DNA from: a virus | Direction: 5' to 3' (one strand) | Length of the DNA stretch: 64,000 bases | IMG/VR virus record: IMGVR_UViG_3300046684_000205 | Coordinates: 29,479 to 93,478 of that record | Shown here: in pieces, positions 51,684-58,071 of the stretch | Position numbering within the stretch: position 1 is the first letter of the stretch | Layout of the letters: each line of letters opens with the position of its first letter | Position numbers and translations under genes: made by a program | The notes under the pieces: generated by a model | The model's input: the letters and a program-made list of their open reading frames with translations, nothing else | The model's database searches: none | What the model was told of the DNA's origin: nothing

Positions 51684-51713
51684 AGTGTATGGCAAACTAT
51701 TTCCAGATGTCAA
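51684..51713 (-). promoter_or_regulatory. promoter
   Basis: TTGACA-18 nt-TACACT; spacer contains AGTTTGCC. Confidence 0.55.
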
Positions 51714-53407
51714 TGCTTTACGCGGAAGCTGGCGAACAGCGGCACGCCGGTGAACGCGATCTCGCGCGAGGCGGTTGCCATCAGCTGTGACGCCACGTGC
51801 AGATAGCCCAAGGTGTGCATGAAGTGGTCGTTGCCTTCCTTCGACTTGGTCCAGGTGTAGTAGAGCTCCTGGTGTTTGTCGAAGGCCTGGGTGCGCTTCA
51901 TGTCGACCATGTGCAGCTTCCACAGCGTGTCGGTATGGTCGCCCTGCTCGACCCAGCTGATGGCGCCGGTCTTGTACATGTTCATCACCTCGTCGAAATT
52001 GACGTCGCGATGGATCTTGGCCTGGTTGATCGGCAGCTTGCCCTCGGCTTCGTTCTTGTCGACCATGACGATTTCATAGGTCGCCAGCTTCAGGCTGCTG
52101 TTGTAGACGGCGCCATACAGGTTCTTGTCCTGGGCCTGCATCCGATGCACCAGGTTGGTCTCGGGGAAGGCGTCGACCACGGTGATCAGCACGCGCCACT
52201 TCGCCGCCAGCTCGCGCCGGCGAAGCTCCAACTTGGCAAGTGGTACCTGCTCGCGGTAGCAGACCAGTAGCCGGTTGTCCAGCGTGCGCCGGCCGATCGC
52301 GATGTGGCAGATCTGACCGACGTCGATGCCCATGGCGTGCAAGTCGCCGGTGTGCAGGCTGCCGTTGGTATATTTGCACTTCTCGACGTCGGCGTCGGTC
52401 AGCTGGCTGCTGCCGGCGTCGGCCGTCTCGCCCAGCGCCTGGTTGACGAATTCCGCCCAGGTCTTGTACTTCGTGATCTCGAGGATCAGGGAAGGGACCG
52501 TGACGATCTCCGGCACCTCGAACGGCGTGACGTAATAGCCGATCGCCTCGAACTGGTCCTGCGGGTTTTCGCAGACCCACTCGCGGTGTTCCGGCGCCAG
52601 GCTCGGCTCCTCGTCGCAGGCCGGGCAGTGCAGGCGCGCCTCACGCCAGCGCAGCTGGTCGACGTTGTGCTTGTTGATGTCGCGGAACTCGCCCGCGTAA
52701 TCCGGAATCTTGACGTGCTTGTGGAAGCTGGGGACGAACTGGGCGCCGCAGTGGTTGCAGGTGCAGGCGCGGCGCATGCGGCGCGCGGCCGCCATCTCCA
52801 GCGCGATGCCGCGGCCATCGGTCGTCGGCGTGCCGAAGCGCCGCGTCAGCTTCCATTTGCTGTGCTTGATGCGCGACTGGAACTGGGCAAGGGTGTCCGG
52901 GTCCGAGCGGTCAACCTCGTCGTGGATCAGCATGTCCGCCGGCACCGACAGCGCGGTGGTCGAGCCGGAGCAGCCGCGCATGTACAGCAGGCTGGTGCCG
53001 ATCGACTTGATGCTGGCGTTGTTCAGGTCCTTGTCGATCGACTCGCGCAAGTCGGGCGACTCGTCGATGATGGGGTCGAGGCGGGTCTTGGTGAAGTTGA
53101 CGGCGTCGTTGGCGAACGGCAGCGTCATGATCACCGAGAAGTAGGGCATCACGCGGCTCACCGCCAGCGCGTAGCGCGCCATGCACTCCGACATACCGAC
53201 CTGGGCGCATTTCTGGACATACACCGTGCGGCTGGTGTCGGAGATGATGTCCTTCTGGAACTCGTGGTCGATGAACGAGAAGCGGTCGCCCTTGAGGAAG
53301 GTCTTCTCCTCGAGGTAGCGCACGACGTCATTCAGGTCGTAGCTGTCGAACAGCGCCTGCTCGAGGCGCTTCAGGTGCTCGAGCAGTGCGGGATCGGCGT
53401 GGCTCAC
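51710..53407 (-). CDS. terminase large subunit, lambda GpA-like
   Basis: KCAQVGMSE, IHDEVD, GTPT, CNHC/CPAC zinc ribbon, GIDVG, NDHFMH. Confidence 0.9.
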   Translation of the reverse strand: MSHADPALLEHLKRLEQALFDSYDLNDVVRYLEEKTFLKGDRFSFIDHEFQKDIISDTSRTVYVQKCAQVGMSECMARYALAVSRVMPYFSVIMTLPFANDAVNFTKTRLDPIIDESPDLRESIDKDLNNASIKSIGTSLLYMRGCSGSTTALSVPADMLIHDEVDRSDPDTLAQFQSRIKHSKWKLTRRFGTPTTDGRGIALEMAAARRMRRACTCNHCGAQFVPSFHKHVKIPDYAGEFRDINKHNVDQLRWREARLHCPACDEEPSLAPEHREWVCENPQDQFEAIGYYVTPFEVPEIVTVPSLILEITKYKTWAEFVNQALGETADAGSSQLTDADVEKCKYTNGSLHTGDLHAMGIDVGQICHIAIGRRTLDNRLLVCYREQVPLAKLELRRRELAAKWRVLITVVDAFPETNLVHRMQAQDKNLYGAVYNSSLKLATYEIVMVDKNEAEGKLPINQAKIHRDVNFDEVMNMYKTGAISWVEQGDHTDTLWKLHMVDMKRTQAFDKHQELYYTWTKSKEGNDHFMHTLGYLHVASQLMATASREIAFTGVPLFASFRVKH

Positions 53408-53643
53408 GGGTTGTCCTTGTCTGGCGGCGGGAAGTGGTAGCGCCCGGTCTTTTCCAGCTGCTCCAGGTAGTGCCAGATCGTCGTCAAGCGGTAGATGCGC
53501 CGCATACGGTGCCAGAGCGTAGCGCCCAGACACCAAGTCAGCAGACAGGCCGCGCCCAGTACGGCGGCAAGCAGCAGGGTGCCGCCCAGTGCCATGGCCA
53601 TATAGCAACAGAAGGTCGCGGAAGCGACAAGGAAGTGGATCAT
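53404..53643 (-). CDS. membrane protein
   Basis: long hydrophobic N-terminus. Confidence 0.6.
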   Translation of the reverse strand: MIHFLVASATFCCYMAMALGGTLLLAAVLGAACLLTWCLGATLWHRMRRIYRLTTIWHYLEQLEKTGRYHFPPPDKDNP

Positions 53644-54893: not shown

Positions 54894-55211
54894 GGGCACC
54901 CAGGAGCCGGCGCCGACCAGGTTTCTACCAGGAAAGTACACCCGTCACCAAGCCTTCCAGCGCCCCGCTACGGGGCGCGCCGCTGGCGCATACCGCGACA
55001 CCGACAATTTCCGCGTGCAACCAGCGTCGTTTTGGCGCGTTCTAGGGCCATTGCACAAAAGCAACAATGCGTCTGGTCCAACCAGTTTCAGGCGATTGGT
55101 CCAACCACTTGCGCTATCCGGCCCGACCAGGCTGGCGCTGGTACGGTTTTTGCTTACCACGCCGCCATAGCTCGCACCTATCACCTGCCGGAATTCGATT
55201 AAGAAATACAA

Positions 55212-55241
55212 TTGTCCAATATCTCAGAAAAAACCCATAAT
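55212..55241 (+). promoter_or_regulatory. early promoter candidate
   Basis: TTGTCC-18 nt-CATAAT. Confidence 0.45.
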
Positions 55242-55304: not shown

Positions 55305-56039
55305 ATGAAAGCCACCTTTACCCGCAACATCGCCATGTCCGACATGTTCCGCGCCCTCGCTGGCGACGATCAGGCGCAATTCGACATCATCGCGTGTACC
55401 GTCTACAGCGCCGCCTATTCCATCATGCAAGCCGGTAACAAGACCCAGTTTGCCAAGCTGGCGGCCGATGCGCAGATGTACGGCGCCGATACGCAAGACG
55501 CCAACAAGGCGTGCAAGGATGCCGTAGGCGCAAAGACCCTGAACGCGGCCGCAAAGCACTTCAAAAAGATCTACGCCGCCGTGCTGGCGACGCTGGCGGC
55601 CTTTCCCGCACCGGAACTGGTCAAGGACTTGCCGCGCGGCAAGGATGAGCAGTTCGCCATTCTCGATCCGCTGGCAAGCGATTACGCGGACGCGTTTACG
55701 GCCAACTTTACCATGCTGATGCTGGCTCCGGCGCGTACCGAAGAGGAGGCAGCGCAAGCCAAGGCCAGCCGCGAGGCCAAGAAAGCCGAGAAAGAGGCCG
55801 AGGCAGCCAAGGCCGAGCGCGAGGCCGAGCGCGAGGCGCGCAAGGCGCTGGATGCGGCGGTGGCGTCGCGGGTTGCCGCTGCCAACGAACCGCCCGTTCT
55901 GGCGCGCACGCTGGCCGATCTGCTGCTGGCGGGGGCGCTGGACACCGAATCTGAAGCGCTGCTGATCGAAGCTGTCAAGGCGCGCGAAACCGCGCTGCTG
56001 CTGGCGCGCGTCGCCAGCGCCGAGCCTGTCGCCGCCTGA
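55305..56039 (+). CDS. hypothetical early protein (244 aa, charged helical C-terminus)
   Basis: AGGAG RBS; first + strand gene after the bent-DNA region. Confidence 0.8.
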   Translation: MKATFTRNIAMSDMFRALAGDDQAQFDIIACTVYSAAYSIMQAGNKTQFAKLAADAQMYGADTQDANKACKDAVGAKTLNAAAKHFKKIYAAVLATLAAFPAPELVKDLPRGKDEQFAILDPLASDYADAFTANFTMLMLAPARTEEEAAQAKASREAKKAEKEAEAAKAEREAEREARKALDAAVASRVAAANEPPVLARTLADLLLAGALDTESEALLIEAVKARETALLLARVASAEPVAA

Positions 56040-56044
56040 TCGTC

Positions 56045-56096
56045 GCGCCCCTGCAGGGGCGCTATCCAAAGCCCTGTGACAGGGCTTTGGATAGCG
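56045..56096. repeat. 18-bp palindrome plus inverted repeat with 18-bp arms
   Basis: GCGCCCCTGCAGGGGCGC; CGCTATCCAAAGCCCTGT-G-ACAGGGCTTTGGATAGCG. Confidence 0.9.
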
Positions 56097-56199
56097 TCAC
56101 CGTGCGCGCCTGACAGAACGCTCAGGAGTTCCGCGCATACCGTCGCTTTGGTCCGCTTCGCTGGCGTCATTCGCCACCGTCGCGCCAAGTCTTCGGGCC

Positions 56200-56210
56200 C
56201 TCTTTAACAA
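56200..56210 (+). promoter_or_regulatory. boxA-like antitermination element
   Basis: CTCTTTAACAA versus rrn boxA TGCTCTTTAACA. Confidence 0.55.
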
Positions 56211-56700
56211 TGAGCCAATAACCAGTACCGCCGAATCCCTGAATTCGTCGCGGGCGCGCTTCGCATCGTCTTTTCGATAGCGTCGTGCGCTGCGCTTCGC
56301 CCTATATCGGACTCGGCGACTGTGCGGCCATCAGCATAAAACGAATGGCGCTGGACGTTTCCAGCGCCTACGGAATCAAACGAAAACCCATACGAAGCGA
56401 TAACATGCGCCGGGATATGGGCAATCTGTGCGCGCCTAGTAACTGCGGCGGAAAGCGAAAATAACCCTTGTATCAGCCGGGAATGGTGGACTGATAAGCT
56501 GGGCGAGATAAGCCGGTACAGGATGAGGACGGGCGATTCTGGAGGAAAACCTTAATCTGGGCGTAGAACGCCCAGCCATGATGAATGGAACCGCTTTGGC
56601 AAGCGGTGGCGCCAGTTCCGGCGCGAATGGGAACAAGGTAATACCCTGCGCATTCGGTATCGGGTTGCTACGCGGTATCGAGTGCGCAGTCATTACCTTG
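56210..56700 (+). ncRNA. candidate structured RNA / structured leader
   Basis: no credible ORF; at least five hairpins, one with G-U pairs valid only on the + strand. Confidence 0.4.
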
Positions 56701-56715
56701 GGCGGAGTATTGACG

Positions 56716-57015
56716 ATGAGAAAGACGCTGTCGGTTCCAATAAAAACGGAGCTAAAAATTAATATCGCGGATTATGCGCGTAATTTACCAAAACCGCATC
56801 CGTGCATTATCCCGCAACCCGTAATTGAAACCCGGTCGAAACTGTTCGATCCGGAGATTGTGCAGGTCCCGAAGCGTAAAAAGCCGGGGCCAGTCAGGCA
56901 GGTGGCAAGAGGCACGCTGAATATCGCGATGCCGGCAATCCGGAAAGGCGAGAAGAATCGCCCCGACAAATCGCAGCAAAAAACAAAATTAACTTTCGCG
57001 TGGAGCGCAGCATGA
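56716..57015 (+). CDS. basic hypothetical protein
   Basis: GGAG RBS; ATGA overlap with the next gene. Confidence 0.55.
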   Translation: MRKTLSVPIKTELKINIADYARNLPKPHPCIIPQPVIETRSKLFDPEIVQVPKRKKPGPVRQVARGTLNIAMPAIRKGEKNRPDKSQQKTKLTFAWSAA

Positions 57016-57188: not shown

Positions 57189-57385
57189 CTTATACAGCAC
57201 GCAAGGCGCTCGCACGCGACAACGTGGCCAAGCCGTTCGTCGTCGAGCACGAATCCGGCCGCATCGCGGCCGGCAAAGACACCTGGTTCGAGGCATGCGT
57301 CGAGCGCAACCACCTCAACCAGCTGGAGACGCTGGCTCAGCCTGCCCAAACCGAGCCATCGGGCATGATGGCGTCCACGCGCTGA
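57185..57385 (+). CDS. hypothetical protein
   Basis: AGGAG RBS, ATGA overlap. Confidence 0.55.
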   Translation: MTYTARKALARDNVAKPFVVEHESGRIAAGKDTWFEACVERNHLNQLETLAQPAQTEPSGMMASTR

Positions 57386-58071
57386 GCCTCGGCATTGAAA
57401 ATAAACGCCTTCGCGCCAGCCAGCACCGCCTTGATGCGCACCCGGTAGTCATCCGCCACGTGACAGGCTACCGGGATGTCCATCCACGCCTCGTCGTGCC
57501 AGTGCCACTCGCGGCCCGGAATCGCCCTGGGGCGCGCCGAGCGCTTCACATGCTCGGCCTTGGGGACAGGCACCAGCTCCGGCTTCAGGGTTGCCAGCTC
57601 GGCCAGATGTGCCGCACGCATTTCGCGCTGGTGCGACTCCAGCTTGAGGACATACCCAAGGTCTTTCAGGTAGAAGTCCTTCGCCAGCGTCTCCCAGTCC
57701 TTGCGGCAGGCATAGCTGGAAATATGTGCCCGCGTGCTCAGGGGATGCGTGTACAGGTTGCCGCGCCGGCCTTCGGCATAGCGCAGGCGCTTCAGCCTGG
57801 TCGGGTACAGGTTGGCCGGCGAGAAGTCCGCCGGATCTGCCCCAAGCTGTGTAATCGGGTACAGCGGCCAGTTGCCGTGAATCAGGCACCACGCAATCGA
57901 GGTGCCATGGATCTTCACGCCATCGAACAGCGTCACAATCTTGTAGCCATCCTTGCTGGTCAGCAAGGCCGCGGTGCCCGACGCAAGCTTGCGGTACAGC
58001 TTCGAGCCTTCCAGCACGAAGTACTTGTGAATCTGTTCAGGCGGCAGCACGGAATTCAGGTTGGTATGCAT
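57337..58071 (-). CDS. HNH-fold protein with degenerate active site
   Basis: IAWCLIHGNWP...ITQLGADPADFSPANL aligns by eye with the HNH pattern W..GxWP..IDHING...DN...NL; GAGGAG RBS. Confidence 0.6.
   Translation of the reverse strand: MHTNLNSVLPPEQIHKYFVLEGSKLYRKLASGTAALLTSKDGYKIVTLFDGVKIHGTSIAWCLIHGNWPLYPITQLGADPADFSPANLYPTRLKRLRYAEGRRGNLYTHPLSTRAHISSYACRKDWETLAKDFYLKDLGYVLKLESHQREMRAAHLAELATLKPELVPVPKAEHVKRSARPRAIPGREWHWHDEAWMDIPVACHVADDYRVRIKAVLAGAKAFIFNAEAQRVDAIMPDGSVWAG

Follow-up and report, generated by a model that had tools for sequence, protein, structure and literature searches.

A conserved multi-domain phage RNA with a pseudoknot and a boxA in the gap between two genes

Introduction

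What is carried by 676 nucleotides (nt) of phage DNA in which no gene is found? The question is raised by positions 56040-56715 of the window, i.e. the whole stretch of 64,000 nt analysed here, which is the last 64 kb of the IMG/VR record IMGVR_UViG_3300046684_000205 (93,478 base pairs (bp); complete by CheckV). All positions given below are those of the window. The gap separates an upstream gene, p275 (left), from a downstream gene, p99 (right), both on the plus strand; its guanine plus cytosine (GC) content falls to 0.50-0.56 from about 0.65-0.70. A preliminary description, made from the letters of the sequence, had proposed for most of this gap an undescribed structured non-coding phage RNA or an antiterminator RNA of the nut or put kind. 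The fold, the covariation and the conserved position of the boxA support that proposal.

The gap is shown to hold a conserved multi-domain RNA structure of the plus strand, with a pseudoknot and a conserved boxA (56040-56715). Judged by the sequence searches reported below, this RNA belongs to no catalogued family and is a new RNA family, a new version of a boxA/nut-type element.

Conservation and fold of the RNA

Relatives were found among uncultured phages by means of two flanking proteins, a conserved DNA pattern and a terminase alignment. The homologous region is present in nine further distinct contigs (L003, L005, L006, L007, L008, L009, L026, L027 and L028; L026 is identical to L023 in the RNA stretch and is counted once). 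Their large terminase (TerL) is 66% to 98% identical to that of the window phage. The DNA of the non-coding RNA is 67-80% identical where alignable, and the RNA locus is at least as conserved at the DNA level as p275 (50-71% amino-acid identity).

The minimum free energy (MFE) of the plus strand of 56200-56716 is -217.1 kcal/mol, versus -183.2 +/- 5.6 kcal/mol for dinucleotide shuffles (z -6.0), none of 100 of which folds as well. The minus strand of the same stretch gives z -3.5 against dinucleotide shuffles.

Covariation is abundant in the ten phages. The 5′ and central part was scored in A7, a sequence-only MAFFT alignment of six phages that extends from the second hairpin behind p275 (56072) to domain III. 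RNAalifold gave 141 pairs on A7; 10 were removed as artefacts of a truncated hairpin and 131 were scored. Over these, 93.4% of cells are paired, and compensatory double changes are seen in 63 of the 131 pairs. In controls with the 3′ partners shifted by 1-3 columns, 32-42% of cells are paired and 11-14 pairs are compensatory; the observed values are reached by none of 500 column shuffles. For domain III, a model-guided alignment of all ten phages has 94% of cells paired and 28 of 46 pairs compensatory (equalled by 0 of 500 shuffles), a score that leans towards structure because the alignment was fitted to it.

The strand is given by several features. Helix cells that are not Watson-Crick comprise 109 G-U on the plus strand versus 16 A-C (which correspond to G-U on the minus strand), a count with some circularity, the plus strand being the one used to predict the fold. 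Folding of the alignments gives -150.3 kcal/mol for the plus strand versus -135.1 kcal/mol for the minus strand (A7), and -68.9 versus -46.3 kcal/mol (A5). The variable fraction per codon phase is 0.56/0.60/0.61, i.e. without three-base periodicity, and the indels in the gap are not multiples of three. No conserved open reading frame (ORF) is found in 56040-56715; the stop-free stretches differ among relatives and none is shared. The wobble pairs, the folding of the alignments and the non-coding pattern together identify a plus-strand RNA, neither a protein gene nor a cluster of DNA palindromes. What had been put forward beforehand about a stretch lacking any credible ORF and selected on the plus strand for RNA structure agrees with these data; two of the refuting conditions named with it, folding no better than dinucleotide-shuffled sequence and a lack of covariation, are not borne out.

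An element acting as DNA (an origin, packaging or recombination palindromes), a chance cluster of hairpins or an array of minus-strand terminators could be invoked for a locus that has the terminase operon and an AT-rich region no more than 1.3 kb away, and of which one hairpin (56347-56368) is called a minus-strand terminator by a loose scan. The excess of G-U over A-C cells speaks against any of these, as do the covariation of the long-range helices and the pseudoknot, the clearly worse folding of the minus strand and the single copy in the genome; a reading without RNA is highly improbable. A repeated palindromic element like the repetitive extragenic palindromes (REP) or the miniature inverted-repeat transposable elements (MITE) is ruled out, the RNA being single-copy in the 93.5-kb genome; the motifs of domain III are unique too.

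Searches for known families

No match at gathering score was obtained with Rfam 15 for the window and the nine relatives. At E <= 10, the same sequences gave chance-level fragments of miRNA or sRNA models only. GOLLD, ROOL, OLE, HEARO, raiA and the other covariance models of Rfam 15 gave no match. The statement that the RNA is undescribed thus stands as far as Rfam families are concerned.

The conserved DNA pattern has 107 matches in 185,579 species genomes, none of which resembles the RNA region by BLAST. In metagenome contigs of the Joint Genome Institute (JGI), a single pattern match is found; it lies in a coding-looking stretch and, the motif apart, has no likeness to the RNA. In cultured phages, no DNA matching the RNA region was found, and the closest TerL among them, that of Vibrio phage SHOU24, is about 30% identical. 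The runs listed as containing the phage are four rhizosphere DNA metagenomes, with no RNA run among them. A large survey of IMG/VR 3.0 (Fremin et al. 2023, PMC10690425) gives candidate RNAs only 29-151 nt long; a fragment of the present RNA could be among them.

Domain III and its pseudoknot

Domain III (56557-56699, plus strand) is common to all ten phages; the covariance model R1 recognizes it with 88-154 bits in each. It comprises five hairpins on the plus strand. Ha (56557-56575) contains the stem CTGGGCG/CGCCCAG. Hb (56576-56588) has a stem of 4 bp, found with five different sequences, and a GAUGA pentaloop. Hc (56590-56607) contains the stem ACCGC/GCGGT and has the loop UUUGGCAA. Hd (56609-56624) has a 5-bp helix, GCGCC/GGCGC. 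He (56635-56699) is a long interrupted hairpin with three G-U pairs on the plus strand. The stems of Ha, Hc, Hd and He had all been listed in the preliminary description and are present. The hairpin loops UAGAA/UAGCA, GAUGA and UUUGGCAA of this domain are invariant. The inner stem of He is wholly different between phages and still paired; its loop GGUUGNUACG and its internal loop are conserved.

The loop of Hd pairs with the bases just after a conserved AAUA, forming an H-type pseudoknot (56615-56619 with 56630-56634, plus strand). Seven loop sequences are found in the ten phages (GUUCC, UGUCC, UUUCCC, GUCCC, UUUACCG, UCUCG and CCCUCCCC), and for every one of them a fully complementary Watson-Crick partner of 5-8 bp stands at the homologous place. 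The mean is 5.9 bp for cognate pairs, versus 3.5 bp for non-cognate ones (maximum 5).

The Shine-Dalgarno sequence (SD) of the next gene, GGCGGAG, and its ATG (56700-56718, plus strand; read from the sequence) follow at once, the start codon lying 17 nt past the last helix. A strong SD and a start codon are found within about 10-20 nt of He in all ten phages, whatever gene comes next. The SD is unpaired in the consensus fold, which contains neither a conserved alternative pairing nor a U-tract terminator. Pairing of the SD with the 5′ end of the RNA, as proposed by the MFE fold of the window, was rejected, since it is not conserved in the relatives.

With such a layout, domain III could be a leader that senses a ligand or a protein, i.e. 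a riboswitch-like or operator structure setting the translation or stability of the adjacent gene. Its universal conservation, always 10-20 nt before an SD and ATG, would fit, and a pseudoknot with an A-rich crossing strand is a common architecture for the binding of ligands or proteins. No known riboswitch or leader model of Rfam 15 matches, however; the SD is free in the consensus fold, the alternative pairing of the window MFE being absent from the relatives; and the regulated gene would differ among phages. A sensing leader is quite unlikely.

The boxA and the structures around it

A boxA (CCTCTTTAACA-A; 56199-56210, plus strand) matches at 10 of 11 positions the gamma-proteobacterial consensus GYTCTTTAANA (PMC5725501). 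The word CTCTTTAACAA, reported earlier at 56200-56210, is present as stated. CT[TA]TAACAA occurs once in the 93,478-bp genome, at 56202. In the relatives, the homologous position lies 381-427 nt 5′ of the GAUGA hairpin. A boxA with 10 of 11 matches is found there in eight of the ten phages and one with 9 of 11 in L005; a match of 10/11 is found in 0.3% of random 420-nt windows of the genome of the window phage. On the 5′ side, 73 nt from the boxA, stands a covarying hairpin whose loop is conserved. Directly 3′ of the boxA, no element is conserved in all members. No conserved boxB-type hairpin is found within about 20 nt of it, the sole pentaloop hairpin (GAUGA) lying 375 nt 3′. Searches of Pfam and PHROGs revealed no antiterminator family among ten neighbouring ORFs.

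The RNA had been described as led by its boxA. The boxA is indeed there; the conserved structure, in contrast, begins about 150 nt earlier, after the stop codon at 56039, and the RNA is consequently not strictly boxA-led. Two abutting long hairpins (56045-56096, plus strand; 56045-56062 and about 56060-56096), seen in the sequence and as an inverted-repeat self-match, come right after the stop codon of p275. Both stems vary in sequence yet stay complementary in the relatives. The two hairpins overlap by 3 nt; the second has about 17 perfect pairs, and no U-tract lies 3′. A role as an RNase III site or as a terminator, possibly a factor-dependent one, is conceivable for them. They are followed on the plus strand by a helix (56103-56139) around a hairpin (56109-56127), the 10-nt loop of which, ACAGAACGCU, is conserved (helices 1 and 2 of A7; 5 of the 6 pairs of helix 2 compensatory, 100% of cells paired), and by more weakly supported helices before the boxA (56140-56196, plus strand; 77% of cells paired in helix 3 and 94% in helix 4 of A7).

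Three plus-strand structures separate the boxA from domain III. Domain I (56218-56324; helices 5-10 of A7) is a long composite hairpin with a conserved loop, UCNUUU, and a conserved strand, CUUCGCCCUAUA; in its helices 9 and 10, compensatory changes are found at 9 of 16 pairs and 94-95% of cells are paired. Next, behind the conserved strand CAGCAUAAAACG, comes a 10-bp hairpin (56346-56369; helix 11 of A7) with the GGCGCTGGA stem; 8 of its 10 pairs are compensatory and 97% of its cells are paired. The stem GGCGCTGGA/TCCAGCGCC at 56347-56368 was among those already noticed. This hairpin is selected on the plus strand, as indicated by its G-U pairs in the relatives. Read on the minus strand, 56347-56378, i.e. 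the hairpin 56347-56368 and then AUUCGUUUUA, passes a loose scan for intrinsic terminators.

Domain II (56370-56542; helices 12-22 of A7) has several branches, and a long-range helix (56370-56378 with 56534-56542) closes it. The closing helix reads GGAAUC/GAUUCU in the window, AAUCA/UGAUU in two phages and GAUUGCA/UGCAAUC in three others; 4 of its 9 pairs are compensatory and 96% of cells are paired. Helix 22 has 6 of 10 pairs compensatory. Within domain II, the hairpin TATCAG/CTGATA (56471-56496), also part of the preliminary description, is found again; its loop, GGGAAUGG, is conserved.

Exchange at the locus

The central part of the RNA varies between phages while domain III and the position of the boxA are kept. 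L005 (IMGVR_UViG_3300049459_000229), whose TerL is 98% identical to that of the window phage, lacks exactly the 10-bp hairpin and domain II, about 265 nt (L005:3640-3690); it retains the boxA, domain I and domain III. In L008 (3560-3830) and L026 (1080-1370), domain II is replaced by a common, different central domain with the motifs GAUGAACGAUGAKAUCGG and CUACAGGGURGGCCAG. The replacement by other sequence includes the 10-bp hairpin before domain II in these two phages as well as in L028. The central domain of L028 differs both from domain II and from the version of L008 and L026. Since L008 and L026 share a different central domain, the central RNA module seems, from sequence comparison, to have been swapped by recombination.

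More distant relatives, with TerL identities of 52-65%, have no match to the model R1, nor has L141 (87%); other sequence is found at their locus. In L141 (306-763, minus strand), L151 (2436-2872, minus strand) and L159 (640-1026, minus strand), a non-coding gap of 390-460 nt lies at the same locus, with two hairpins behind the p275-like gene first and an SD at its end. The z values of the folds of these gaps are -5.5 (L141), -1.4 (L151) and -4.0 (L159). Words resembling boxA (GATCTTTAACAAAA, CGCTCTTTATGA) are found at the same spot in relatives with an otherwise different RNA, as read in L151 and L159. The gap of L141 has short motifs in common with domains I and II (CCUAUAC, GCGCAAUCAA). Because relatives without this RNA hold another one there, the locus is described as a boxA followed by an exchangeable structured RNA.

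These variants bear on the possibility of a stand-alone, stable 'ornate' RNA of about 550-600 nt, cut from the operon transcript (e.g. by RNase III in the hairpins 56045-56096 and 56635-56699) and acting in trans as a scaffold, a decoy, an RNA-only assembly or a ribozyme, the boxA merely securing its synthesis and folding. Size, multi-domain build, long-range closing helix and pseudoknot fit large tertiary-structured RNAs. The loops GAUGA, UUUGGCAA, GGGAAUGG and GGUUGNUACG are invariant and A-rich single strands are conserved; the element persists while the following gene changes, and long near-perfect hairpins bracket it. GOLLD and ROOL, two large RNAs of phages or prophages, are precedents in that they assemble into complexes made of RNA only (PMC12286853). 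Yet a central domain that is dispensable or exchangeable (L005, L008, L026) fits poorly with one fixed large machine. Moreover, scans and relatives reveal no promoter or terminator proper to the RNA, the ribosome-binding site of the next gene always adjoins it, its processing is purely inferred, and Rfam shows no likeness to any large RNA. An ornate RNA acting in trans is possible and, on this evidence, doubtful.

Gene neighbourhood and operon

Gene order is the same in 10 of 10 IMG/VR phage contigs: TerL, preceded by p152 and a helix-turn-helix (HTH) gene, points leftwards, and a promoter, p275, the RNA and small genes follow rightwards. To the left of p275, on the opposite strand, lie the gpA-type TerL (51710-53608), the 152-amino-acid (aa) ORF p152 and the 101-aa HTH protein. 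A consensus scan of the locus found a sole promoter on the plus strand, a predicted sigma-70-like one with -35 TTGTCC, an 18-nt spacer and -10 CATAAT (55212-55241; 9 of 12 matches). In six relatives, both the -10 (YATWAT-like) and the AAATACAAT block before it are kept. p275 (55305-56039, plus strand) is listed with a start at 55212 or 55305; the ATG at 55305, which follows AGGAG, is probably the real start. Its homologues, with the amino-acid identities given above, lie directly 5′ of the RNA in the relatives. p275 has no Pfam or PHROG family and the protein atlas gave nothing informative on it.

The alignment of the relatives contains no conserved -10-like element between p275 and the boxA, and a terminator scan found no U-tract or intrinsic terminator 3′ of the RNA. 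Since the promoter precedes p275 and the RNA has neither a -10 of its own nor a terminator before the small genes, the RNA is intercistronic. It had been assigned to the early operon: it does lie within an operon, between two of its genes and not at its head.

p99 (56716-57015, plus strand), a small basic protein, is kept at 50-77% identity in eight phages. Neither Pfam nor PHROGs gives it a family and the protein atlas was uninformative. Its invariant motifs are PIKT, LPKPH, NRPD and LTFxW; p99 is a candidate RNA partner. It is encoded right after the RNA in six phages. In L003 and L005, an unrelated short basic ORF comes first and p99 next; in L026 and L028, another unrelated pair of small basic ORFs stands in place of p99. 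The latter were considered as distant homologues of p99 and rejected as such (BLASTP E 0.9; hhalign probability 0.3%). The genes right after the RNA are all short and rich in Lys/Arg.

A region of the lambda nut type may be considered on these grounds: a small basic protein (p99 or its substitutes) would bind a conserved hairpin, e.g. the 4-bp GAUGA stem, and would make the polymerase termination-resistant together with boxA-bound Nus factors; it might also control the translation of its own message, as lambda N does through the nutL leader. The nature of the genes after the RNA accords with this, and so does the layout (first gene, boxA, structured leader, long hairpin, SD, small basic protein), which resembles cro-nutR and nutL-N. 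GAUGA could also take a GNRA-like pentaloop fold, as boxB does. Nevertheless, the neighbourhood of the boxA, described above, offers no conserved hairpin within about 20 nt and a pentaloop hairpin 375 nt away. p99 lacks not only a Pfam or PHROG match but also an N-terminal arginine-rich motif, and the following proteins of L026 and L028 are not detectably related to it while domain III is the same. A nut region of this type is unlikely.

Two other features flank the operon. In the divergent region 5′ of p275 (55074-55241), two exact TGGTCCAACCA palindromic boxes are found (55074, 55097; 0.17 expected by chance), together with an ATAG-N7-CTAT palindrome and the conserved AAATACAAT block before the conserved -10; TGGTCnnACCA boxes, similar to TGGTCCAACCA, are found in relatives. 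The palindromic boxes of 55074-55241 are probably operator or terminase-binding sites. To the right of p99, two tiny ORFs are followed by a convergent gene. This 244-aa ORF (57337-58071, minus strand) has a weak match to PHROG 99 (HNH endonuclease, E 4e-4) and is kept at 53-71% identity at the same place in relatives.

Proposed explanation

The reading adopted here is that of an intercistronic RNA of the early rightward operon that is protected by Nus factors, folds co-transcriptionally and passes a termination-resistant polymerase downstream. It is proposed because 676 untranslated nt in the middle of an operon are what Rho would otherwise terminate, and it is held with moderate confidence. 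Transcription, the loading of Nus factors, antitermination and whatever the fold does are all inferred steps of this reading.

Plus-strand transcription would start from the sigma-70-type promoter at about 55212-55241, the gap being part of one operon transcript, which would fold into the large multi-domain RNA. The nascent RNA would expose the boxA once about 160 nt of untranslated sequence have been made. The boxA would load host NusB/S10 and, with NusA, NusG and SuhB, would yield a Rho-resistant RNA polymerase, by analogy with rrn, lambda nut and boxA-led CRISPR (clustered regularly interspaced short palindromic repeats) arrays. Retention of the boxA at the RNA exit channel could let the polymerase complete the 500 untranslated bases and help the long-range helices to form; the polymerase could then read on into the small downstream genes. 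Domain III, which ends 17 nt before the ribosome-binding site, for that reason probably acts in cis on whichever gene follows or binds a protein.

The analogy is based on published systems. The rrn antitermination complex is nucleated by boxA and resists Rho; it keeps the 5′ nut-like element beside the RNA exit channel, acting as an RNA chaperone (PMC8632103). Regulation by boxA reaches beyond rRNA (PMC5725501). For CRISPR arrays, Stringer 2020, as cited in PMC7862264, ascribes to a boxA on the 5′ side the role of shielding long untranslated transcripts from Rho.

The fold may contribute in cis on the ribosome-binding site, by binding a small basic phage protein (in the manner of lambda N and nut), or as an excised stable ornate RNA. 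Two features lean towards a role in cis, at the level of the operon: domain II is exchanged as a module, and domain III always adjoins an SD. The size, the invariant loops and the pseudoknot lean towards a tertiary fold with a partner.

Several points weigh against a Nus-protected leader as the full account. The boxA by itself gives no reason why 500 nt of tertiary-looking structure should be conserved. L026 has no consensus boxA, its best score being 7 of 11; a word seen by eye in it, CGCTCTTA, is that of the lambda-type boxA. The compensatory counts overstate independence, since the structures were drawn from the scored alignments and the ten sequences are related. Finally, no simple cis-regulatory switch is visible, as the SD is not sequestered in the consensus fold.

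A bolder extension may be formulated. The RNA would belong to a novel class of autonomous large phage RNAs, working as a ribozyme, as an assembly made of RNA alone or as a decoy that engages a host factor or a defence system. Its synthesis and long-range folding would be chaperoned by the hijacked rRNA antitermination complex recruited by boxA; the exchangeable versions at the same locus would then constitute a hypervariable 'RNA gene cassette'. This extension is speculative and rather unlikely.

Very few RNAs of such size and complexity are known in bacteria and phages, most of them with a function still open; here, a near-consensus boxA before the fold provides a concrete mechanistic handle. 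Three ideas become testable: phages may borrow the transcription and folding machinery of host rRNA for long non-coding RNAs; Rho may be the selective force behind a boxA-bearing phage RNA; and the fold may govern early gene expression or act in trans. The natural variants (central domain absent, swapped, or a different RNA behind a similar boxA) are ready-made constructs for dissection.

Comparison with known systems

RNA-only processive antiterminators, i.e. the put RNA of HK022 and the EAR RNA of Bacillus, are likewise structured operon RNAs, and the present one may similarly modify the polymerase in cis. Unlike it, put consists of two stem-loops of about 70 nt without a boxA; EAR has about 120 nt, and the Rfam search of the region, made with no model of put, gave no relevant match.

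As in lambda nutR and the nutL-N leader, the first gene of an early operon is succeeded by a boxA, behind which come structured RNA, a long hairpin and the gene of a small basic protein. The locus differs from them by an RNA 5-10 times larger than a nut site. Membership in the lambda nut type fails because no boxB-type hairpin adjoins the boxA and no recognizable N protein is found.

GOLLD and ROOL (PMC12286853, PMC5737381) are also phage-borne, hundreds of nt long, with many covarying helices and pseudoknotting. In contrast with them, the present RNA does not match their Rfam models, does not lie beside tRNA genes, is embedded in an operon behind a boxA and belongs to GC-rich soil phages of proteobacterial type.

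The boxA of CRISPR arrays and of suhB (Stringer 2020, cited in PMC7862264; Baniulyte 2017, PMC5725501) are non-rRNA boxA acting against Rho on an untranslated stretch, as is proposed here. The transcript that would be protected in the phages is a conserved complex fold, whereas it is a repeat array or a short 5′ untranslated region (UTR) in the former.

Together with the lambda nut region, the antitermination region of rrn leaders and spacers is what the RNA would most resemble in its working; the components of this rrn region are the boxB hairpin, boxA and boxC, with NusA/B/E/G, SuhB and S4. In rrn and in the phage locus, a near-consensus boxA starts a long untranslated structured transcript with long-range helices. 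In both, a hairpin lies 5′ of the boxA, which is the order of rrn rather than that of lambda (PMC8632103), and host factors alone could suffice. The phage locus departs from rrn in that the RNA that follows is not rRNA, the upstream hairpin lies 73 nt from the boxA instead of being adjacent, and the whole is located inside a protein-coding operon of a phage.

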